Positions 43,990 through 55,849 of a stretch of DNA of 64,000 bases are shown here, one piece after another (the first letter of the stretch is position 1; the number at the start of each line of letters is the position of its first letter). Below the pieces are notes generated by a model, which saw nothing but the letters and a program-made list of their open reading frames with translations, ran no database searches and was not told the DNA's origin. Source of the stretch: a bacterium (lineage in GTDB: Bacteria; UBA8248; JACPRG01; G963555815); contig CAUVWX020000001.1 of assembly GCA_963555815.3 (NCBI GenBank), positions 384,001 through 448,000 on the forward strand, read 5' to 3'. The translations under genes and the position numbers were made by a program.

Positions 43990-44001
43990 GAGACAAAAAG
44001 A

Positions 44002-45252
44002 ATGACTTCTTCTGTCCCTGACCTCCCCCTGAAGATCGCCCTCATTCGGGCGAACGTCCACCGGCGAGGGGGCGTGGAGCGCTACGTCCTGAGTCTCGCC
44101 AATGACCTCTCGCGGCGGGGCCATGAGGTCCACGTCTTCGCCAGAAACTGGGAAGATCTTTTGCCGACCGTCATCTGCCATCCAGTCCCGCGCATCGGCG
44201 GCCTCTCCTCCCTCAAGGTCTTGTCTTTCGCGTGGGGGGTCCGACGCGCCCTCCGCGGGGAGTCCTTTGATATCGTCCATGGCTTCGACCGGACCCTCGT
44301 TCAGGACATCTACCGGGCCGGTGAGGGCTGCCATCGGCAGTGGCTTCGGGTCTCGGGACAATATTTAGGCCCTCTCAGGGGATGGCTGAGACGCCTGAAC
44401 CCTCTTCACTTCCTCCACCTCTTTATCGAGAGACGGATCTTTGGTGGCTGCCGAAAGATCGTCGCCATCTCCCGCCGGGGCCAAGAAGAGATCCTGAATC
44501 TCTACAAGGTCCCCCCTGAGGATGTGATCCTGATTTACAACGGCGTGGACGGGCAAGAATTCTCTCCTCCACAAGGAGAGGACGAGAAGGCCTCCCTTCG
44601 CCGGTCTCTTGGCATCTCCCCACACGACCTCGTTCTCCTCTTCGTGGGAACCGGCTTTTTCCGAAAGGGTTTTTCGGCCCTCCTCGCGGCGCTCCGGGCC
44701 CTTCAAAGAGAACGCCCGGAGATAAAACTCCTGGTGGCCGGCCGGGGGGGAAGGGGTTACAACGGGACGGTCCGACGCCTTGGGCTAAAGGGGGCTGTCC
44801 TCTTCCTTGGGGACACCGTGCGAACGGCCGACCTCTACCGGGCGGCTGACCTTTTCGTCCTCCCGACCCTGTACGAGCCTTTCGGGACGGCGTGCCTGGA
44901 AGCCCTGGCGAGTGGTCTTCCGGTCATCGTGAGCGCAATGAGCGGGGCCAGCGAGATCCTGACGGACAGTGTGGACGGCCTCATCCTGGAAGACCCAAAC
45001 GACCCGGAGGCCATCGCGGCCAAGGTACAGCTTCTCTTTGACCCCGAAGTGAGAAGGAAGATGGGGACCGCCGCGAGAAGACTGTCGGAGAATTTTAGTG
45101 TCACCGCCAACACGGATCGCACCATAGCGGTCTACCGGACCGTATTGGAAAGCCTGAAGGGGGGGATCTCGGGCGCCCCAAAAGAGCCACGAGGAGGGGA
45201 GTCACCATGGGAAGAGTCGTCCATGTCCCGAAGCGGAACCTCAAGTGCTTAG
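44002..45252 (+). CDS. GT4 glycosyltransferase (WaaG-like)
   Basis: GGVERY, DIYRAGEGCH, RKG, YEPFGTACLEA. Confidence 0.88.
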   Translation: MTSSVPDLPLKIALIRANVHRRGGVERYVLSLANDLSRRGHEVHVFARNWEDLLPTVICHPVPRIGGLSSLKVLSFAWGVRRALRGESFDIVHGFDRTLVQDIYRAGEGCHRQWLRVSGQYLGPLRGWLRRLNPLHFLHLFIERRIFGGCRKIVAISRRGQEEILNLYKVPPEDVILIYNGVDGQEFSPPQGEDEKASLRRSLGISPHDLVLLFVGTGFFRKGFSALLAALRALQRERPEIKLLVAGRGGRGYNGTVRRLGLKGAVLFLGDTVRTADLYRAADLFVLPTLYEPFGTACLEALASGLPVIVSAMSGASEILTDSVDGLILEDPNDPEAIAAKVQLLFDPEVRRKMGTAARRLSENFSVTANTDRTIAVYRTVLESLKGGISGAPKEPRGGESPWEESSMSRSGTSSA

Positions 45253-45384
45253 GGAGAAGCAGAGGTTGAAACGGATCTTTGGGCCCTCTTTTTCATCCTC
45301 GCCCTCGTCGTTCTGGCTTTCCTTGTCTACGATCGAGGGGATCGACGAGGCCTTCTCGAGCAGGCCCTTCGGGGCGAGGCAGAG

Positions 45385-46077
45385 ATGATCGACCTCACCC
45401 ATCCGCTCAGCGAAGAAACGGTCTATTGGCCCGGCGGGATCCCCTTCCGGAAAGAGATGCTGGCCGACTACTCCCAGGGCTTTCGGATGTTCAAATTCGA
45501 GATGGGAGAAAATGTGGGGACCCACGTGGACGCCCCCGCCCATTTCGTTCCAGGGGCACCGACGATTGACCAGATCCCCCTCCGCCACCTGGTGGCCCCC
45601 GCCGCCGTCGTGGACGTCAGTACTAAAGTGGAGAAAGATGCCGACTATCGCCTCACCGTGGATGACCTTCGGGCCTGGGAGGAGAGAAACGGGGCAATCC
45701 CCTCAGGCACCCTCGTCCTCATGCGGACAGGATGGGGGAAACGGGCGGGAGACCTGGCGCAATACCGGAACATGGACGAGGGGAAGACGATGCATTTCCC
45801 GGGATTCTCTGGAGAAGCGGCGGAGTTTCTGACAAAGGAGAGGGACATCGTCGGGATCGGGATCGACACCCTGAGTTTGGACTACGGTCCCTCGAAGAAT
45901 TTTATCGTCCATCAGGTCATGCTGGGGGCCACCAAGTACCAAATCGAGAACCTGGCCAACCTGGAGCGGCTTCCCGAAAAGGGCGCGGTCCTCATCGTGA
46001 TGCCCCTCAAGGTCAAGGACGGAACCCAGGCCGAGGGCCGCCTGATCGCCTTGGTCCCAAAGCGCAGGCGGTTCTGA
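45385..46077 (+). CDS. Cyclase / kynurenine-formamidase family metal hydrolase; N-terminal anchor probably detached by a frameshift
   Basis: IDLTHP, GTHVDAPAHF, FPG, GIDTLSLD, IENL. Confidence 0.88.
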   Translation: MIDLTHPLSEETVYWPGGIPFRKEMLADYSQGFRMFKFEMGENVGTHVDAPAHFVPGAPTIDQIPLRHLVAPAAVVDVSTKVEKDADYRLTVDDLRAWEERNGAIPSGTLVLMRTGWGKRAGDLAQYRNMDEGKTMHFPGFSGEAAEFLTKERDIVGIGIDTLSLDYGPSKNFIVHQVMLGATKYQIENLANLERLPEKGAVLIVMPLKVKDGTQAEGRLIALVPKRRRF

Positions 46078-46107
46078 AGAGACACCGTCCCCTGAGCGTT
46101 TTTTGCC

Positions 46108-47235
46108 ATGCGAACTCTCCTTTGCGCTAACGCCTATCCCCCAAGCCCTGGAGGAATCCAGACCTACGCCTATGAGATGGCGCGCCACCTCTCCCGCCTG
46201 GGAGAGGAGGTCAATGTCCTGGCCCGCTCCAGGGTCAAGAGGTGGGAGGGGGACAAGACAACGGGGGTGAATGGGATCGTTCGATGTCGAACAAAGCCGG
46301 GCCTTTGCGCGAGGTTCTTCGACTCCCTGTGGCGTCACGACACCGAGCTCATTTTCATCACCCACCGGGCGAACTTTCTGTCATGGGCCCTCGCGGCAAA
46401 GCGCGGAAGGCCGAGACTTCGGGTCGTTGTCACCCTTCACGGGAACGAGGTCTATGGCCGCCCTGATCTCCCCCGCCTGATCTCTCAGGTCAACCGGGCG
46501 GACGGCGTCTTGACGGTGAGCCAATATGCAGCCGAGCGTCTCTCCCGGCTCGGGGTCCACCGCGAAATCCTCCACGTCGTCCCGAACGGGGTGGACCCCC
46601 AAAGATTCTCACCAAAGACAGAGGGGGGGTCCACACGGGCCCGCCTCGGGCTCAACGACCGCCCCATCCTCCTCTCGATGGGCCGTCTGGTCCCCTTCAA
46701 GGCCTATGACCAGGTCCTGCGGGCCCTTCCCGCCATCCTGGCCGAGGTGCCAGACGCGATATACCTCGTCGTCGGCGAAGGTCCCCAGGCCGCACCCCTT
46801 CGCCGGCTGGCCGAGGAACTCCAGGTGGAAAATCATGTTCGCTGGCATCCGGCGGTCCCCTACGACGCCCTGGGCCATCCGCCGCACGCCTATTACAATG
46901 CAAGCCACCTCCTGGTGGGCCCAAGCCGCATCGACCCCAAGACGGAGGATATCGAGGCTTTTGGGATCGTCTTTCTGGAAGCCGCCGCCTGTGGAAAGCC
47001 CGTCGTGGCCGGGCGCTACGGGGGTGGGGCGGAGGCCGTCGTCGACGGAGAGACCGGCTTCGTCGTGGAATCAGAAGATCCCCAGGCCATCGCCCGGGCC
47101 GTCATCCGGCTCTTGAAAGATGAGGACCTCGCCCGCAAGATGGGGGAGGCGGGCCGAAGAAGAGTCGAGACTTCCATGAACTGGGGAGCCTGCGCCGAAA
47201 GGACGTTGAAGATTGTGAAGCAAGTGAAAGGATGA
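46108..47235 (+). CDS. GT4 glycosyltransferase (PimB'-like)
   Basis: PP..GGIQTY, NGVD, EAFGIVFLEA. Confidence 0.88.
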   Translation: MRTLLCANAYPPSPGGIQTYAYEMARHLSRLGEEVNVLARSRVKRWEGDKTTGVNGIVRCRTKPGLCARFFDSLWRHDTELIFITHRANFLSWALAAKRGRPRLRVVVTLHGNEVYGRPDLPRLISQVNRADGVLTVSQYAAERLSRLGVHREILHVVPNGVDPQRFSPKTEGGSTRARLGLNDRPILLSMGRLVPFKAYDQVLRALPAILAEVPDAIYLVVGEGPQAAPLRRLAEELQVENHVRWHPAVPYDALGHPPHAYYNASHLLVGPSRIDPKTEDIEAFGIVFLEAAACGKPVVAGRYGGGAEAVVDGETGFVVESEDPQAIARAVIRLLKDEDLARKMGEAGRRRVETSMNWGACAERTLKIVKQVKG

Positions 47236-48470
47236 AAAAAAGATTTAAGGCGGTCTTTCTTGGCCAGGGGGAGCGTCTACCCCTTCGGGTGAGCCAGGGA
47301 GCCCTGGTGGGGTTTCTCGTCCTGGACCCTTTCTCCATCAGCCTCGCCCAAATCTGCGTCACCATCGGGGTCTTGGCCGCTGCGGCCGATCTCATCCTCT
47401 CCCGCCGCGAGAACGCAAAATTTTCGCCTCAGTGGCCCCTCTGGCTTCCCTTCTCAGTCTTCGTGGTGATTACCGTTCTCTCAGCCCTCCTTTCACAGGA
47501 TGTCGTTAGAAGTTTCATGGACACAAAGCAGCTCCTTGAGATCTTGATTCTTTACTGGGCCCTTCGGGCCATCCCGGCATTCGGACGGGCGCGCCTCCTG
47601 GTCCAGCTCCTCATTCTCGCGGCTGGGGTGATGGTCATCGTGGGCCTCTTTCAGTTCGCTCTCTCGGAAGGCCGCCCCCTGGCGCGGCGGCCTTCTGGGA
47701 CATTGAGCATCTATCAGACCTTCTCCGGCATCCTGGTCATCGTGACCCTCCTCTCCCTCTCCCAAGCCCTCAGCCGGACTGCGTCCCCTCGGGAGAGGTG
47801 GTTCGCAGGGGGGGCGACCCTTCTCCTGATCCTGGGTCTCCTCTTCAGTCTCACCCGAGGGGCATGGGTGGGGTTTGGGGCAGGCGTCATCCTCCTCCTC
47901 ATCCTTCAGCGGAGGGCCCGCTGGCTCTGGGTCCTCCCGGCCATCATTGCCCTCCTCTTGCTGGCGGGACCCCGGGAGCTTCGGGTGAGACTCCAGCACA
48001 CGGTCCTCTTTAACGAGGAGGCCTCGGGGGAGAGGGTCCTCATGTGGAAGGCCGGGCTGCAGATGGCGAGAGAATTTCCCGTCTTGGGGGTGGGGACAGA
48101 TATGGTGAAACCCCTCTACCCGGACTACCGGCTTCCCGGGGCTAAGCGGCCAACCGTAGGCCACCTCCATAACAGCCCCCTTCAGGTGACCGTCGAGCGG
48201 GGAACCCTCGGCCTCGCCGCCTGGATCTGGATCTGGGTTTCCTTCTTCGCCCTGGGGACAAAAACTCTCAAAAATCTTCCGAAAGGCCCTGAATACGAGA
48301 TGGGGACCGCGAGCCTGTCGGCAGTGGCGGCCTTCCTGACGGCAGGCCTCTTTGAATACAACTTTGGGGACTCCGAGGTGGTGATGCTCATTTACTTCGT
48401 GATGGCCCTTCCCTTCATCGCTCAAAGGCACACGCCCGCCAAGCCGGGGCAGAGGGTGCCTCTCTCCTGA
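47232..48470 (+). CDS. waaL: O-antigen ligase family protein
   Basis: Many TMs, TRGAW, R..MW..G, GVG, HLHN, FGDSE. Confidence 0.85.
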   Translation: MKKRFKAVFLGQGERLPLRVSQGALVGFLVLDPFSISLAQICVTIGVLAAAADLILSRRENAKFSPQWPLWLPFSVFVVITVLSALLSQDVVRSFMDTKQLLEILILYWALRAIPAFGRARLLVQLLILAAGVMVIVGLFQFALSEGRPLARRPSGTLSIYQTFSGILVIVTLLSLSQALSRTASPRERWFAGGATLLLILGLLFSLTRGAWVGFGAGVILLLILQRRARWLWVLPAIIALLLLAGPRELRVRLQHTVLFNEEASGERVLMWKAGLQMAREFPVLGVGTDMVKPLYPDYRLPGAKRPTVGHLHNSPLQVTVERGTLGLAAWIWIWVSFFALGTKTLKNLPKGPEYEMGTASLSAVAAFLTAGLFEYNFGDSEVVMLIYFVMALPFIAQRHTPAKPGQRVPLS

Positions 48471-48640
48471 GCCAGCGCTTGCAGATTTGTGCTGTTTCTT
48501 ATATATTTACCAGTAACACTAACGGAGGGATTGTGGCAGTGGAAGGCAACCACCGAGGGCCCGCACGCACACAGGGGTCGAACTCGGATTTGCCAAGCCC
48601 CGACCAAATTCCACCGAATTTCCTGGCTTCATCCTGAAAT

Positions 48641-48668
48641 TTGTTTGACACGATTTTTTTGGTATAAT
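48641..48668 (+). promoter_or_regulatory. Promoter with extended -10 for the multicopper oxidase operon
   Basis: TG-G-TATAAT at 48660-68; TTGTTT 16 nt upstream of the -10. Confidence 0.6.
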
Positions 48669-48838: not shown

Positions 48839-51800
48839 ATGAAACCTGTCCGCAAGATTCTGCCGTTACTGGGCGTCGCTGTCTGGTTGGGCATTATTCT
48901 GGCCGTTTCGATAGGCATCATCGGGTCAAAGAAGCAACTCGACGAAGCCCTCGCCGCTAGGGGGCTCACTCTAGCGCAGCCGCTCGAGAGGAAACTCGAG
49001 CGGATCATTGCCGAGGAAACAGGATACGAGATCAGCAGTCACGAGAGGTCAGAGGGGCCGAGCCTGATGGCCAGCTTTGATGAGCACGAGAGTGTCCTCT
49101 TTTCGCCCGTGTCCTGCCCCGCCAACGCCCCTGTCAAAACCTATGATCTTGCGTCCATCAACGTCACCATTATCCTGAACCGCTGGGGCGATCGGGATCC
49201 CCTGGGCTACATGTACGCCGTCCGCGATCATCTCCCGGCCATCCGGGCCCAAGAGACCACGGGGGAGGATGGGAACTTCGGACTGGGCCTCGGGGTTGGG
49301 GGAGATGCCATTCAGCCCCTCACGATCCGCGGCAACGTGGGTGACTGTGTCCGAATTTCCCTCATCAACGAACTGGACGAGCCGGCGAGCTTCCATGTCC
49401 ATGGTGCCGATTTGATCCTGGCGGCCACGGGCGAACCGGCCCTTTCTACGAACTCCGACTCAATGGCGATGCCAGGCGAGAAGATTATTTACGAGTGGTA
49501 CATCGATCCTGAGCACTACACCGAGAACACCCACTACGTTCACTCCCACGGTGCCAAGGCCCGGTTCCAGGCGGGCCATGGGCTTTTTGGCGCGTTCATC
49601 GTCGAGCCGGCCGGGTCAGAGTACCTTGACAACCAGACGGGCCAGCCCCTTTGCAACCGGAACGGGAATGGCGACGCTCTGGAGTGTGGGAACTCGTGGG
49701 ACGCGATGATCTCGCCGGGCGACGGCAGTTCTGATTTCCGCGAGTTCACGATGTTCTACCACGAGATTGGCAACGCGCAGTTCGCTGCTGCAGACAAGGA
49801 GGGGGTCCCGCTCCCGAGCATCGATCCGGTCCTGAACTCCTACAAGCCCAGCGGCCGCGCCATCAACTACCGGAGCGAGTCCTTTTTCCGGCGGATGGGC
49901 GAGATCGACGAGCAGGTGCCCTTCTATAAGGAATGGAAGCACGACGAAGCTGAGGCCTACTCTTCATATGTTTTTGGCGATCCGGCCATGCCCGTCCCCC
50001 AGTCCTACGTAGGGGACCCCGTCAAGTACCGCCTCCTGCACGGCGGCAGCGAGACCTTCCACGTCCCCCACCTTCACGGGGGCGGTATCCAGTGGCAGCG
50101 CCAGTCGGACGTCGGCAAGGAGGACGGTGCCTCGGACTTTGTGCCCATCGACGAAGGCCTCCGGAAGCATTTCGAGAACACGATGGCCAGCTCTGGCAAC
50201 GACTCGCAGACCATTGGCCCTTCTGAGAGCTACGAGCTCGAGATAGGCTGCGGGAGCGGTGGCTGCCAGCAGACCGTCGGCGACTTCTTGTTCCACTGCC
50301 ACGTTGCCTCCCATTACATCTCCGGCATGTGGCACTTTTGGCGGGTCTACAATACCCTTCAAGACGACGTAGGCAAGACGGACGAGCTGGCTGTGGTCGC
50401 CGAGCTCCCCGACCGCCAGGGCGGCATGGAGCACGCGGTTACCTCAACGGAGCTTATCGGCCAGACGGTGACCTTCTCCGGTCGCGATATGACCGTCAAC
50501 GAGTCGCTCCTTCACACCCTGGTCCAGTTGCAGTTGCCCCCCCAGGGCATCACGACCCACGAGCAGGACGCGTCGGTGATGGACTGGGCCGTGGACGAAA
50601 CTCTTTATCTCAACGAGCCGGAGACCAGGTACAGCTGGCCGAACTTCACCTCGCCGAATCCTGGGGAGCGGTTCGCCTTGAAGTTCAACCCGGCCACCGC
50701 CAAGCTGGCATTCCCATTCCTTCGGCCTCACCTTGGCAAGCGGCCCCCCTTCGCCCCGCATCACGGGCCCGCTCCCTTCCTGGAGCCCTTTAATCACCCA
50801 GAAACCATCCCAGAGGTTGTCGCTGGCGATACCCCGAAACTGGCTGGCGACACAGCGGAACTAGTGGAGCTCGTCTCTGACGACAGCTCAACTGACGACA
50901 GCGCATTCGAGGTTGCTCAGACTAGAAACAGAGAGGTTCTCCACCCTCTTCTCACCGGGCACTCTGAGCCAGCTCATCCGGGGTTGAATGGAGAGTACAG
51001 TCTCTGTCCGCAAGGCGCGCCACTCCGCTTTTACAATATCCACGCTATCCAGACCCCAATCCCCGTGAATGCCGTCACGTTGGATTCGGACGGGATGATC
51101 ATGGTCCTCAAGGAGAACGAAGAACGGGCCAGAAACAACCCGGATTTCAAAGTGCCGATCGCCATTCGAGCCAACCAGGGCGACTGCGTGGACATCTTCT
51201 TCACCAACGAGCTCGACGGGACGGATAAGGACCACAAAGGACTCCCGAACTTGATGAAGACAAACATCCACATCCACTTCGTTCAGTTCGACACCCAGGC
51301 GTCTGACGGCGTTATCACGGGTCAAAGCTATGAGCAGGCGCCGCGGCCCTTCACAGCACCGGGAATGAGCGCCAAGATCCAGGAGGTGGCGACGCGGGGG
51401 TCCGTCCGATTGAGCGTCAACGATGCCTCCTTATTCCACCCGGGATCGACCGTAGCAGTTGGCATCGACGAGCAGACCGATATCCTCGAGACAGCGGTTA
51501 TTGAAGCCATCTCGGGGAATGAGCTCATCTTCAGACGCCCGCTCCGCAACGACCACGTACCCGGCGAGCTGGTGAGCAACGAGTTCGTCCGCTACCGGTG
51601 GTACGTGGCACGTCAGAACGGCGCCATCTATTTCCACGACCATGTGGATGCCCTGAACCGGTGGGGCCACGGGCTCTTCGGGGCCCTCATCGCGGAGCCC
51701 ACCGGCTCGACATATCACGATCCCAAGACCGGCGAGGAGATCCTCAGCGGGCCCATTGCGGACATCCGCCTGGACCCCAACCGAGGGGTGCTCCCGGGCC

Positions 51801-53449
51801 TGGAAGGGAGCTTCCGCGAATACGTACTATTCATGAACGACCGCAACCAGATGACCGGGAGCACGTTCAACCTTCGAGCCGAGCCGCTGCGCGCCGACAC
51901 CAAGCGCGGCCAGGGCCCAACCCACCTGGCGCTCAGCAGCGTCATGCACGGCGACCCGGCGACCCCGGTGCTCCGGTCCTACGTGGGCGACCCCATCCTG
52001 TTCAGGTTGCTCACTTCGGCGACCGAGGAGATTCACCCGTTCCACATCACCGGACACCATTTCCGGCAAGAACGTTTTCAGGGGAACTCGCCCCCGCTGA
52101 CCGTCTTCGGGGTGGGGATTTCGGAGCGGTTCAACGCCTACGTCGAGGCGGCCGGAGGCGCGGCCCGAAAGGCCGGCGACTACCTCTATTACAACGGTTC
52201 AGAGCGCCACTTCCGGGAGGGGAGCTGGGGGATCCTCAGGGTGCACGACACCCTGCAGGCTAACCTGCAGCCGCTGCCGGGTCGGGAGCCGCCATCCGGA
52301 CAGGGCTTCCCCCTCCTCACCTTTACAGGAGAGGCGCCACCGAGGGCTACGGACCCGGGCAACCCGTGTGTCGCCGGAGCCCCCCACCAGACCTTTAACG
52401 TATCCGCCATCGATCAGAGGCTCGTGTTCAACGCCGACGCGGGGTTGGGGATACCCACGGGCCGCATCTACGTACTCGATCAGGACCTAGAGGCCGTTCA
52501 AAGCGGCGCTAGGCGGCCTGAGCCCCTCGTGATCAGGGCCAACGCCGGCGACTGCATCACCGTGAGCTTCACCAACCGTTCCAGCCAGCCGGCTTCCTTC
52601 CACGTGGACAGCCCCACCTTCGATCCGCAAGGGTCCCTGGGGATCACCCTGGGCTACAACCCCGATCAGGTGGCCCTCCCCGGTGAGCACATCAACTACA
52701 CCTTCTACGCCGAAGACGAGCTTGGGGTTGTGCTCGCCCGAGACTTCGGCAACCTCTTCCGAAACGCTCGGGAAGGGCTCTACGGGGCGCTCGTCGTGGA
52801 GCCCGAGGGCTCGACCTATCACGATCCCTACACTGGCGAACCCCTCGAGAGCGGGGTCGCGGCGGTGATCCAGAATCCGAACACGCCCGACTTCCGGGAG
52901 TTTGTCACCGTGTTTCAGGACAACGACCCGGACATCGGCCTGTTCCTCATGCCCTACGACCAGGACGTGAACAAGCTGGTGGGGATCAACTACCGAGCCG
53001 AGCCTCTCACCCTGCGCCTCGCCCTGATGGGGATGCTCCTCGACGCAGACCCGCTGAGGCCTGAAGACTTCAAGATGGCCTCATCGCTCTACGACAGCAG
53101 CGTGTTCGGAGAGCCGGCGACCAACGTCTTTGAGACGTTTGGTGGTGATCCCGTGCGCTTCCGAGTGGTCAGCGGATACAGCGAACAGTCCCAAGTGTTC
53201 TCTGTGGAGGGGCACCAGTGGCAGCTCACGCCGCAGATCAAGGGCTCCGACGTCGTCAGTTCGCGTTATCTTCCGCCGACCGGCGTACTCAACGCTAACC
53301 TGATGGCCACGGGTGGCCCGCAGGGCCGTCCGGGCGACTACAAGTGGGGCAACCACCGACTTCCCTTTGAGAAGGCGGGCCAGTGGGGGCTCATGCGAGT
53401 TTATGGGCCGGGGACCGACACCCGGCTGAGACCTTTATCGGACCGATGA
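48839..53449 (+). CDS. Large six-domain multicopper oxidase (MnxG-like), membrane anchored
   Basis: Cupredoxin repeats (PLTIRGNVGDC, IAIRANQGDC, PLVIRANAGDC); HVPHLH plus HCHVASHYISGM (T1 site); HIH and FHDH; extra HVH/HSH. Confidence 0.88.
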   Translation: MKPVRKILPLLGVAVWLGIILAVSIGIIGSKKQLDEALAARGLTLAQPLERKLERIIAEETGYEISSHERSEGPSLMASFDEHESVLFSPVSCPANAPVKTYDLASINVTIILNRWGDRDPLGYMYAVRDHLPAIRAQETTGEDGNFGLGLGVGGDAIQPLTIRGNVGDCVRISLINELDEPASFHVHGADLILAATGEPALSTNSDSMAMPGEKIIYEWYIDPEHYTENTHYVHSHGAKARFQAGHGLFGAFIVEPAGSEYLDNQTGQPLCNRNGNGDALECGNSWDAMISPGDGSSDFREFTMFYHEIGNAQFAAADKEGVPLPSIDPVLNSYKPSGRAINYRSESFFRRMGEIDEQVPFYKEWKHDEAEAYSSYVFGDPAMPVPQSYVGDPVKYRLLHGGSETFHVPHLHGGGIQWQRQSDVGKEDGASDFVPIDEGLRKHFENTMASSGNDSQTIGPSESYELEIGCGSGGCQQTVGDFLFHCHVASHYISGMWHFWRVYNTLQDDVGKTDELAVVAELPDRQGGMEHAVTSTELIGQTVTFSGRDMTVNESLLHTLVQLQLPPQGITTHEQDASVMDWAVDETLYLNEPETRYSWPNFTSPNPGERFALKFNPATAKLAFPFLRPHLGKRPPFAPHHGPAPFLEPFNHPETIPEVVAGDTPKLAGDTAELVELVSDDSSTDDSAFEVAQTRNREVLHPLLTGHSEPAHPGLNGEYSLCPQGAPLRFYNIHAIQTPIPVNAVTLDSDGMIMVLKENEERARNNPDFKVPIAIRANQGDCVDIFFTNELDGTDKDHKGLPNLMKTNIHIHFVQFDTQASDGVITGQSYEQAPRPFTAPGMSAKIQEVATRGSVRLSVNDASLFHPGSTVAVGIDEQTDILETAVIEAISGNELIFRRPLRNDHVPGELVSNEFVRYRWYVARQNGAIYFHDHVDALNRWGHGLFGALIAEPTGSTYHDPKTGEEILSGPIADIRLDPNRGVLPGLEGSFREYVLFMNDRNQMTGSTFNLRAEPLRADTKRGQGPTHLALSSVMHGDPATPVLRSYVGDPILFRLLTSATEEIHPFHITGHHFRQERFQGNSPPLTVFGVGISERFNAYVEAAGGAARKAGDYLYYNGSERHFREGSWGILRVHDTLQANLQPLPGREPPSGQGFPLLTFTGEAPPRATDPGNPCVAGAPHQTFNVSAIDQRLVFNADAGLGIPTGRIYVLDQDLEAVQSGARRPEPLVIRANAGDCITVSFTNRSSQPASFHVDSPTFDPQGSLGITLGYNPDQVALPGEHINYTFYAEDELGVVLARDFGNLFRNAREGLYGALVVEPEGSTYHDPYTGEPLESGVAAVIQNPNTPDFREFVTVFQDNDPDIGLFLMPYDQDVNKLVGINYRAEPLTLRLALMGMLLDADPLRPEDFKMASSLYDSSVFGEPATNVFETFGGDPVRFRVVSGYSEQSQVFSVEGHQWQLTPQIKGSDVVSSRYLPPTGVLNANLMATGGPQGRPGDYKWGNHRLPFEKAGQWGLMRVYGPGTDTRLRPLSDR

Positions 53450-53486
53450 TCCACTGGCGCCATCGAGTGTGCCAAAGGGGGCGATA

Positions 53487-55595
53487 ATGAGGACATTGCG
53501 TGGGCATTTCAAGGGTGGCGGGGTGTGGAAGTCCTGGGGGGTGTTGTTGTTATTGACCCTGACGGCTTGTGCGCCCACCTTATTGCCGGACTCAGTGGAC
53601 CCGGTTTTGAGTCACAAGATGGGCAGGGAGATTCGGGTCCCTCACACGACGCCGGCCTATGAAGGGAAGCCCATGCTTCACGCCAGCGAGCTGACGATGA
53701 CGCCGCTGTTGGAGACGGATAGTGCCACGGGGTGGGAAATCGAGGGTCTTCGCGATCCCCTTCAGGACATTGAGTTGGCCATGACGCGTCTTCTCGTGGT
53801 GGCTCGGGCGTCCGGTGACCAGCCGGTTGAGGATCTGAGCGCTGCCGAGGAGATGCTGGCCATCCTCCTTGGCACGACCGAGGGCCGGGTCTACGACGGT
53901 TTTCCTCTCTTGAACTATAACCCGGGCGCCCTTGTGGCCGACCAGGTCCCGGACGAGTACAAGATGAAGCGTCTGGTGGACACGGGCGAGACCGTTCGCA
54001 GCCAGATCGATGGTGAGCTCCACAAGGTGTGGGAGGTGACCATCAACATGCTCTGGTACGGCCACAACTTCGACTCAGACACCTTCCTCCTTCGCGTCCC
54101 CTATGAGGCTCAACTCTACGACGAGTTCCGCATCAACTGGCGGATATACTCGCTCATTCAGGAGGATATCGCCCCGACCACGATTCTCAACGACGGCTTT
54201 GGCCGGATCTTTCACGGTCTGGACAGCACCTTCACGAGCGTTCCGGCAGAGACCCTTGCTGAGATGACGATCAAATACCCCTCTCTCATCCACTTCAAGG
54301 GCATGTACACCTGGGGCTGGGGCGTGCACCCGCCTCGGGTCCAGTTCCTTCAGCCGGTCTTTGAGGATTCCCCTGACGGCGAGCTGAACCCGGCGGGTGA
54401 GTCCTTCGCGACGCGGACCCGAGAGAATCTGACCATTGAGAACATCGGCGAGGCGGCCCCCGAGAAGAAGGCCTACCGGGTCGCCACGGCGGCCATGGAG
54501 GGCGCCACCGGCAGCGAGATCGCCGCCATGCTCATGGACCCCGACGTGGCCCCTTCTGGGACCTTTCGGGAGTGGACCCGGCTCGCGGCCGATCTTCGTC
54601 AGCTGCCCCCTGAGGCATGGGAAGTCCTTCAGGAGGAGGAGGGGATAGGTCGCGACGAATACGGGGACTACGACATCATCCTGGCCTACCTAAACAACGA
54701 GATCTACGGCGTGACCCCTTACGCCCAGGTCGGGACCGAGGCCAAGGGCGCCGTGGTCCGTGACTGGGAGCAAGGGGGGTCCTTTAAGGTCAAGATCATC
54801 AACCTGGACAACATGGTCCACTACTACCGAAACGTGGACTTCGGCGACCAGCTCCCCAACGAGGCGGCCAGGACCTTTGGCAACGGCAGCTTCAGCTTCG
54901 GGAAGTTCAACGCCAAGCCCACCTATGGGGTGCCCAAGGTGGCCGAGATGCAGTGGCGAACCGGTTGGGGGTTTGTCCCCCACGCCGGGATCAATGCCCA
55001 AGCGGGGGTCTTCCCACGGGAAGAGGACCAGGCACTCCTGACCCCCTTCACTGATCAGCTCGGTAAGACTCACCCGGGCTACATCTTCAAGCGCGTGAGC
55101 GGTTACTGGCGTTTCAATCCGCCGGCGAAGATCAGAGAGGGTGCGAACATCCCCGCGGGCGATCCCCTTCGGGACGCCGACGGAGAGGACGGGGTCCTCA
55201 TCAGCTTTGACGCAGAGGCCTTTGGCGTCGCCAAGATGCCCAAAGGGGCCATCATCACCCACCCCTACTCCGACACCTTCCCCGAGCTTCGCTTCCCGGG
55301 CTTCTTGAGGAACCCAAACGGGGGCGGGGACATCATCCCCCCGACCCGCATCTGGGCCCCCTTCCTCACCATGAACCCAGAGACCGGAACCCTGAAGGCG
55401 CCCGACGGACGCTACTGGGTCGACTACACCTACTTCCACGGAAGGCCCGTCGACGGCAACAGCTCCATCACCGCCAACGTAGAGGCACCCAGAGCGGGGG
55501 CACAACTCTTCTACCAGTTCGACCCCCTCTTCCACGACAACATGATCTTCTCCTACCACCCACGCTCTGACGCAGTCTCTACCAACCTGAGATAA
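53487..55595 (+). CDS. Uncharacterised ~700-aa lipoprotein co-transcribed with the oxidase
   Basis: LLLTLTAC lipobox, long ORF, 37-nt gap after the oxidase, strong hairpin after its stop. Confidence 0.8.
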   Translation: MRTLRGHFKGGGVWKSWGVLLLLTLTACAPTLLPDSVDPVLSHKMGREIRVPHTTPAYEGKPMLHASELTMTPLLETDSATGWEIEGLRDPLQDIELAMTRLLVVARASGDQPVEDLSAAEEMLAILLGTTEGRVYDGFPLLNYNPGALVADQVPDEYKMKRLVDTGETVRSQIDGELHKVWEVTINMLWYGHNFDSDTFLLRVPYEAQLYDEFRINWRIYSLIQEDIAPTTILNDGFGRIFHGLDSTFTSVPAETLAEMTIKYPSLIHFKGMYTWGWGVHPPRVQFLQPVFEDSPDGELNPAGESFATRTRENLTIENIGEAAPEKKAYRVATAAMEGATGSEIAAMLMDPDVAPSGTFREWTRLAADLRQLPPEAWEVLQEEEGIGRDEYGDYDIILAYLNNEIYGVTPYAQVGTEAKGAVVRDWEQGGSFKVKIINLDNMVHYYRNVDFGDQLPNEAARTFGNGSFSFGKFNAKPTYGVPKVAEMQWRTGWGFVPHAGINAQAGVFPREEDQALLTPFTDQLGKTHPGYIFKRVSGYWRFNPPAKIREGANIPAGDPLRDADGEDGVLISFDAEAFGVAKMPKGAIITHPYSDTFPELRFPGFLRNPNGGGDIIPPTRIWAPFLTMNPETGTLKAPDGRYWVDYTYFHGRPVDGNSSITANVEAPRAGAQLFYQFDPLFHDNMIFSYHPRSDAVSTNLR

Positions 55596-55610
55596 TCAAC
55601 CTACACACAC

Positions 55611-55644
55611 GAGGGCCCGAAAGGTTTTATCCTTTCGGGCCCTC
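55611..55644. terminator. Perfect 14-bp hairpin between convergent genes
   Basis: GAGGGCCCGAAAGG-TTTTAT-CCTTTCGGGCCCTC; no clear T-tail. Confidence 0.65.
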
Positions 55645-55849
55645 TGCACCCCCTGACTGCTCCTTATAGAAAACATAAAAACGGTTCTGGATCTGTGCGA
55701 AAGGGTTGAAGACGCTCGCGATTTCGCCTGGCGGGGAGAACGCACTACCCGGGGCTGAGGCCACGAGGAAAAAAACTCCTCGGGGCGATGTCTTTAACGT
55801 CGGGATTCTCAAGGACTGATCAAAAAAGGGGTCTGCCCTGCGGTCGCCT

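Follow-up and report, generated by a model that had tools for sequence, protein, structure and literature searches.

A MnxG-like six-domain multicopper oxidase gene paired with a gene for a probable distant IoxC relative in a UBA8248 bacterium

We analyzed a two-gene unit in a 64,000-nucleotide stretch of bacterial DNA (lineage UBA8248; assembly GCA_963555815.3, contig CAUVWX020000001.1, positions 384,001 to 448,000; called the window below, and numbered from its first letter). The first gene encodes a multicopper oxidase that is MnxG-like in layout, and the second encodes an exported protein, here called the partner, that is most likely a distant member of the IoxC family in the wide sense. 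Both proteins have known relatives, and it is the pairing of an IoxC-family protein with a MnxG-type oxidase that appears from these comparisons to be new; we found no report of this pairing or of an IoxC fold, although subscription papers outside our search may bear on both, and the ioxC passages of PMC9415286, PMC12335899 and PMC10556733 give no fold and no link to MnxG. Our preferred reading is that oxidase and partner form a complex at the cell surface that most likely oxidizes Mn(II) with O2, to which we assign a probability of roughly 0.45. Mn(II) is the likeliest substrate because the oxidase is MnxG-like, and a subunit role is plausible for the partner because its likely homologue IoxC co-purifies with its own oxidase (PMC9415286). 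The two genes are as follows:

48839..53449, + strand: oxidase gene, an open reading frame of 1536 aa (168.6 kDa) for a six-domain MnxG-like multicopper oxidase
53487..55595, + strand: partner gene, 702 aa from its ATG (78.3 kDa), for an exported IoxC-like protein

An alternative partner start, GTG at 53469, would give 708 aa; the ATG at 53487 has the better ribosome-binding site.

Pfam finds multicopper-oxidase domains in the 1536-aa protein, and among 53 matches in the Protein Data Bank (PDB) the only strong one is MnxG (9BXA; 448 bits, E 4e-133), the next reaching 34 bits. The oxidase aligns with 9BXA in six stretches, and the domain-2 motifs of the two proteins align with each other. Profile-profile comparison of six oxidase slices (14 of the 15 pairs gave a result) revealed an (A-B)x3 repeat, with odd-odd and even-even pairs at 99.9-100% probability and odd-even pairs at 0.3-61%; the six cupredoxin domains counted in an earlier note, which a model had made from the sequence alone, are thus borne out. 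The N-terminal segment and the copper motifs lie at these positions:

48857..48922, + strand: single N-terminal hydrophobic segment (signal or anchor) by hydropathy, no twin-Arg
50060..50077, + strand: domain 2 motif with type-1 His408 and trinuclear His411 and His413
50294..50329, + strand: domain 2 His-Cys-His motif with type-1 Cys487, His492 and Met497
51269..51277, + strand: domain 3 HxH (His811, His813)
51635..51643, + strand: domain 3 HxH (His933, His935)

The type-1 copper ligands in domain 2 are H408, C487, H492 and M497, and the trinuclear ligands are H411, H413, H486 and H488 in domain 2 and H811, H813, H933 and H935 in domain 3. All are invariant in 31 of 31 aligned relatives except M497, which is nearly so (motif tables were compiled for 34 sequences). 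The complete type-1 site, the HxH motifs of domain 3, the resemblance to the MnxG ligand layout and the single N-terminal hydrophobic segment without a twin-Arg motif were therefore all read correctly in the earlier note. The best NCBIfam match is likewise the MnxG family NF041487 (six stretches, E 4.7e-51), and Bacillus MnxG aligns colinearly (646 bits) with a haloarchaeal oxidase whose gene has partner genes on both sides. A circular permutation relative to MnxG was considered, since the strongest stretch pairs domains 5-6 with MnxG domains 1-2, and was set aside, since the domains 2 of both proteins pair with each other and the cross-matches are accounted for by the internal repeats.

Several other features of these oxidases were seen. 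The window's oxidase subclade retains extra His motifs (window positions 49385-49560 and 52025-52230), two of them in domain 1 and one a type-1-like set in domain 4 with Asn replacing Cys, and these are possible additional metal sites. In the oxidases of four other loci (L062, L064, L068 and L070) domain 6 contributes a second His-Cys motif along with His and Met, so that these proteins may hold two type-1 coppers. Genome G037 contains at least four MnxG-like open reading frames, each 2013-2181 codons long (contigs C14, C48, C66 and C93), G004 has two of 2661 and 2810 codons (C13 and C88), and in G016, G025 and G035 the MnxG-like matches are spread over several shorter frames (540-1135 codons), which suggests that the oxidase genes are split or the contigs broken.

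The partner had been called unrecognized, and this holds for sequence searches of Pfam, NCBIfam and the PDB, in which neither it nor its distant clade (below) had a match; the ESM Atlas gave no usable match and a plasmid search none. It does not hold overall, since a recognizable relative and a predicted fold exist, and the partner is most likely a far-removed IoxC-family member rather than a new unrelated protein, as follows: A homologue search found 167 proteins, and the 120 listed are 41-70% identical to the window partner (itself excluded). An exhaustive search found in addition a second, distant clade with about 31-36% identity over the matched stretches. The window partner directly matches an Iodidimonas muriae protein (P0216) by phmmer (E 8.6e-05), and the profiles of the two clades match each other with a probability of 100% (E 1.5e-48). 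The distant, IoxC-type clade has at least 1062 members and contains the 644-aa Iodidimonas Q-1 protein AQ1_01292 (BAM15880.1), orthologues of which are present in I. muriae and I. gelatinilytica. BAM15880 is 26% identical to the window partner over 486 columns, is found by the partner-clade profile at E 4.6e-17 (2e-34 in the reverse direction; database size 5.8e9) and has a computed mass of 71.1 kDa. In purified iodide oxidase, both that of Q-1 and that of Roseovarius A-2, IoxA (62 kDa) and IoxC (71 kDa) were found together, and the enzyme also holds copper and zinc; ioxB, ioxD and ioxF are SCO1/SenC genes, and the function of IoxC is described as unclear (PMC9415286).

The genes around IoxC-type genes were surveyed in the best 80 of 381 metagenome loci. 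A three-domain HCHxxxH oxidase lies upstream in 54 of the 80, and in 47 of the 49 that have at least 1.7 kb of flank. Seven of these oxidases were tested and resemble CueO/PhsA, below the cut-off, and the gene between oxidase and IoxC-type gene was SCO1/SenC-like in the three cases tested (one just under the cut-off). The succession of oxidase, SCO1/SenC-like gene and IoxC-type gene is the published ioxA-ioxB-ioxC order. From its organism, its mass and the gene order of its clade we infer with strong confidence that BAM15880 is IoxC; we found no papers that name the Q-1 accession numbers. Within this clade one protein (P0180) has a fused N-terminal SCO1/SenC domain, and in two clusters (L080:10376-12133 and L100:10491-12209) the genes that follow are a second SCO-like one and a fusion of cytochrome c with a periplasmic-binding-like domain.

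The earlier note described the partner as a lipoprotein with constrained-looking motifs and no heme CxxCH. The motifs that it quoted are indeed conserved among the relatives, CxxCH is absent from both oxidase and partner, so that a heme signature in the partner was ruled out (a Trp-derived cofactor of the TTQ type has a place only in one of the less likely readings below), and the lipobox is present as a pattern:

53559..53570, + strand: partner lipobox LTAC, residues 25-28, ending in Cys28 (pattern match; not family-wide)

Cys28 is the sole Cys in the window partner, and 44 of the 120 family members have no Cys after residue 45. Among the 58 closest relatives 16 carry Tat-like leaders and the others a lipobox-like Cys or a plain signal, so the lipid anchor stands for this copy and is lineage-specific; because export signals vary among relatives, "lipoprotein" describes the window copy and not the family. 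Other residues are far more constant: His281, His445, Asp679, His683, His691, Trp276 and Trp278 are 97-100% conserved across the partner and IoxC clades.

Could the window unit then be an iodide oxidase (IOX) like those of Iodidimonas Q-1 and Roseovarius A-2, oxidizing iodide (and phenolics), with iodine formed outside the cell and the partner conferring iodide specificity on whichever oxidase it joins? The only characterized relative of the partner is part of such an enzyme (PMC9415286). The partner and the likely IoxC share the motifs YxWGWxxHP, the His/VDFG strand and C-terminal YQFDPxxH...H, and in both systems the gene lies downstream of a multicopper oxidase. A planctomycete locus in the window's own clade (L024) has the partner followed by a three-domain-type oxidase and SCO. 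RNA that matches at ≥99% (6 of 10 records; see below) comes from a run labelled sponge metagenome, and sponges are iodine-rich. The window oxidase, however, is a six-domain MnxG-like protein of 168.6 kDa and not like the three-domain IoxA of about 62 kDa, and the genome has no match to the three-domain profile at E 1e-20. The window partner moreover has a lipobox and an insertion of about 150 residues and lies in a separate deep clade, the branch between this and the IoxC clade being long (2.19 substitutions per site), and there are no SCO genes in the window unit. Many record names of the IoxC-type loci suggest soil or freshwater, so even the IoxC clade may not be iodide-specific. We consider an iodide-oxidizing complex unlikely here.

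A structure for the partner was predicted with AlphaFold2 from the 120-sequence alignment (mean pLDDT 92.2, pTM 0.91). Every match that Foldseek showed for this model was a multicopper oxidase or a related protein (the best at E 1.1e-05, with a TM of about 0.12), and those shown for an independent model of an IoxC-clade protein (pLDDT 86.2) were likewise all of multicopper-oxidase fold. A wide structural search divided the partner model into two cupredoxin-like domains and, as a third part, a four-helix bundle; the same search with the IoxC-clade model listed only four-helix bundles. The predicted domains are:

53952..54365, + strand: predicted cupredoxin-like domain 1, residues 156-293, with invariant Trp276, Trp278 and His281
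54666..55565, + strand: predicted cupredoxin-like domain 2, residues 394-693, with a large insertion and with His445, Asp679, His683 and His691

Domain 1 matched rusticyanin, CupA and cytochrome oxidase subunit II (Z 5.6-6.3), and domain 2 matched FtrB (Z 7.3, rmsd 2.4, 86 aligned), which is the top cupredoxin match of the partner, EfeO (7.2) and Cupredoxin_1 (6.8), as well as nitrite reductase, nitrous-oxide reductase and azurin. These Z-scores are middling, and it is their agreement that speaks for the predicted two-cupredoxin-plus-bundle architecture. In the predicted strand order a strand begins with His445 behind the pattern G-x-x-x-x-V-x-x-x-N, the last strand but one finishes at Asp679, His683 falls in the loop that follows and Met686 stands before the last strand, and this order is the layout of type-1 His, Cys, His and Met. 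The equivalent places in domain 1 hold Asp227, Trp278 and His281. The position of the copper Cys would thus be held by Asp or Trp in the predicted fold, and the partner lacks a type-1 (blue) copper Cys ligand. FtrB is itself a Cys-less Asp/His cupredoxin that binds copper and manganese and oxidizes Fe(II) (PMC11966278). It and the EfeO cupredoxin domain share a C-terminal Asp-x(2-3)-His with the partner; unlike the partner they are single small domains of iron-uptake systems, and no sequence similarity between them and the partner was detected.

Are the two genes functionally linked? Partner loci were collected from genomes (78 loci from the best 80 of 106 matches, on which all 78-locus counts rest), and going by their titles they come from Chloroflexota, Acidobacteriota, Planctomycetota, Nitrospirota, cyanobacteria, proteobacteria and haloarchaea. 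A six-domain oxidase is present at 36 of the 78, in 34 of them adjacent and on the same strand, and at 19 of the 40 that have 3 kb or more of DNA to either side. Of the 13 tips in the subclade closest to the window, 11 are linked, the exceptions being the sister-genome duplicate (below) and a 3-kb contig. Four groups recur in the partner tree and in the oxidase tree (window-like, acidobacterial, a second mostly acidobacterial, and haloarchaeal), and pairwise identities of partners and oxidases are correlated (rho 0.55, 33 pairs whose kin are not independent, 0 of 999 permutations). The adjacency and the matching subclades support the functional link, and we regard it as real on this comparative evidence.

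Acidobacterial loci also carry SCO, PCu(A)C and formylglycine-enzyme-like genes. At L021, L033, L035, L039, L041, L046 and other acidobacterial loci these form a recurring cluster of SCO1/SenC, PCu(A)C, a one-CxxCH membrane protein, the giant oxidase, the partner and formylglycine-generating-enzyme-like genes. The frequency of SCO1/SenC and PCu(A)C chaperone genes as neighbors, the predicted cupredoxin fold without a redox Cys and the lack of a SCO gene in the window unit would suit a partner that is a non-catalytic copper-handling or folding factor, loading or stabilizing large exported oxidases, and expression of Bacillus MnxG does require its accessory proteins MnxE and MnxF (PMC5622069). 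On the other hand, SCO genes accompany the partner and do not replace it, the host genome has SCO matches elsewhere (five), a protein of 70-80 kDa conserved over its full length would be large for a chaperone, and IoxC remains with the purified enzyme (PMC9415286). We therefore think such a factor quite improbable.

The complex that we favor would work as follows. In multicopper oxidases electrons enter at the type-1 copper and pass along a His-Cys-His path to the trinuclear cluster, where O2 is reduced to water. In the window oxidase electrons from the metal substrate would enter the type-1 copper of domain 2 and reach the trinuclear cluster between domains 2 and 3, which would reduce O2 to water. 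The partner would dock on the oxidase and bind or hold the metal substrate or its one-electron product, at a predicted non-blue site for Mn, Zn, Fe or Cu in which His445, Asp679 and His683 (with Met686 in the window subclade) occupy the type-1 ligand places, Asp standing for Cys, and here its lipid anchor would tie the complex to the membrane. By analogy it would serve the role ascribed to MnxE3F3 in Bacillus, via an unrelated protein; the earlier note likewise let the lipoprotein replace MnxEF, with mineral nucleation as one possible task. The Mnx complex of Bacillus sp. PL-12 (MnxG with MnxE3F3; 9BXA) also has six cupredoxin domains, a domain-2 His-Cys-His motif and a co-encoded accessory protein, and is exported. 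It differs in that its oxidase has 1227 aa and not 1536, the window protein having an N-terminal hydrophobic segment and insertions and its subclade extra His motifs in domains 1, 4, 5 and 6, and in that two 12-kDa proteins (PMC5622069) take the place of one 78-kDa IoxC-like accessory. Small mnxE and mnxF genes are not adjacent at the locus (no genome-wide search for them was made), and upstream of the oxidase there is only a 110-codon frame over the promoter region that is broken by indels in the sister genome. Pseudomonas putida GB-1 MnxG, which belongs to the best NCBIfam match NF041487, resembles the window oxidase in its Sec-type export (PMC13689576); its published operon contains genes for SCO, lactonase-fold, SurA and ABC proteins, and no IoxC-like gene is mentioned with them (PMC8218464; the GB-1 genome was not searched).

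The partner gene is also present a second time in the genome, within the following block:

53449..55654, + strand: 2206-bp block with the partner gene and the closing hairpin, 100% identical at G000:C1:780007-777802 (L079:9803-12008)

The second copy is preceded by two genes, one for a 151-aa exported protein that faintly resembles a cytochrome oxidase subunit II domain (E 0.96) and one for a membrane protein of 456 aa without a family match (L079:12200-14022, - strand), and this pair has a paralogue at G000:C1:661436-663273. Immediately ahead of oxidase and partner, two cyanobacterial loci (L011 and L048) have relatives of the membrane gene, and one of the two has a weak relative of the small gene as well; the window genome therefore holds two halves of a four-gene cluster, each with a partner gene. 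An assembly artefact was ruled out by the sister genome, which likewise carries both copies, with no difference between them and with 93.3% identity to the window's, and by four of four short-read runs from four studies (one of these runs may be the window's source), in which assembly gives the block as a separate contig that ends at the same points; two of these runs have six strain differences with no second version among the pieces shown. Because the copies are identical within each genome and 6.7% apart between the two, gene conversion is likely, and the duplicate looks like concerted evolution of a single dispersed gene. Oxidase and partner each occur in 2 of 31 related genomes, neither of them outside the genus of the host, which suggests that the genes were gained by transfer.

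A number of observations weigh against a manganese-oxidizing complex of these two proteins. The oxidase scores 173 bits against the NCBIfam MnxG cut-off of 3100 and does not reach it (five other six-domain oxidases are also below it, at 63-255 bits). The closest characterized relative of the partner belongs to an iodide/phenol oxidase, and no output labels BAM15880 as IoxC. The fold matches have Z-scores of 6-7, below 8 and in a range that common arrangements reach, the global TM-scores are low (0.09-0.17), and partner and oxidase domain profiles have no significant match (best probability 4.5%); because this comparison shows no cupredoxin signal, the cupredoxin assignment comes from predicted structure. 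Correlated divergence is expected of any co-inherited genes, and the second partner copy lies away from the oxidase. Finally, 42 of the 78 partner loci have no six-domain oxidase in the fetched DNA (21 of the 40 well-flanked ones). The genomes behind 40 of these 42 were searched (the other two share a genome with another locus; completeness is not given), and 17 have a MnxG-like match elsewhere, 9 of the other 23 have a three-domain-type match and 14 have neither oxidase. The earlier note held that homologs mostly unlinked to oxidases would speak against the pairing, and on this the loci divide, the 34 adjacent pairs supporting it and the 42 unlinked loci opposing it. Unlinked partner genes in four related genomes (L027, L030, L031 and L061) lie between rpsG and the elongation factor G gene. 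A single origin of the unlinked members is not supported; it has a FastTree support of 0.54, and an IQ-TREE run that had not finished and gave no support values did not place them in one clade.

The unlinked loci, about half of all, and the 14 of 40 genomes with neither oxidase type raise the possibility that the partner is an independent enzyme that uses a metal or a Trp/His-derived cofactor, with the oxidase as its maturase or electron sink instead of a stable companion. Its 41-70% identity across many phyla and haloarchaea, the Trp and His residues and Asp679 shared by both clades, the Tat-like leaders of close relatives, the separately controlled second gene copy and the formylglycine-enzyme-like genes beside acidobacterial copies would fit such an enzyme. 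Set against these are the co-purification of IoxC with IoxA in two genera (PMC9415286), the near-total oxidase linkage in the IoxC clade and the absence of a known catalytic motif or family match, and we judge a free-standing enzyme to be improbable.

The earlier note also gave the unit its own promoter, a structured leader and a closing hairpin, between a lipopolysaccharide (LPS) operon and htrA. The elements found are:

48660..48668, + strand: extended -10 promoter-like element TG-G-TATAAT, about 170 bp before the oxidase start
55611..55644, + strand: closing hairpin with a 14 bp stem and no T-run

The extended -10 element is retained in the sister genome, in agreement with an own promoter; a nearby TTGACA has a spacing of only 12 bp and is not retained there, and the site is absent from the listing of a consensus promoter scan. 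The hairpin folds strongly (z -6.98, 0 of 200 shuffles as good), although no T-run follows its stem and it is absent from the terminator scan listing. The structured leader had to be abandoned: the oxidase-gene leader has a z of +0.50, 139 of 200 shuffles fold as well, and Rfam gave only a chance match (E 0.36). Both open reading frames and both flanking genes were found as described, the 5' neighbor being a Wzy_C/O-antigen ligase gene and the 3' neighbor a convergent HtrA gene on the opposite strand, and the GC and GC3 of the two genes are similar to those of their neighbors. A putative cyclase (PF04199) gene at 45385-46077 is embedded in the row of glycosyltransferase genes of the LPS operon. 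In four runs from two studies RNA contigs match parts of both the oxidase and the partner gene at ≥99%, and 44000-48600 has hardly any cover, which we do not take as proof of silence of the LPS flank; these runs were found using this stretch, and the contigs, which carry no level, strand or co-transcription, are weak evidence of expression.

According to a 2026 review, it is an open question whether accessory proteins are required by manganese oxidases other than those of Bacillus (PMC13689576). If the assignments made here are right, one conserved protein family would accompany both oxidase types and join this question to that of IoxC, and the locus would give IoxC a predicted fold, specific residues and a candidate site for the zinc of IOX. 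A bolder picture, which we hold to be doubtful, is that IoxC-family proteins are swappable front-end subunits of three-domain iodide and six-domain manganese oxidases, the Asp site binding the substrate ion and Trp-x-Trp-x-x-His relaying electrons; the window would then represent a third architecture of manganese oxidase in bacteria, widespread in uncultured bacteria and haloarchaea, with two identical subunit gene copies setting the stoichiometry. The two-gene unit is small enough to express and assay. Should it prove to oxidize Mn(II), many uncultured lineages and haloarchaea would become candidate manganese oxidizers, and the partner would be a marker gene more specific than multicopper-oxidase motifs.

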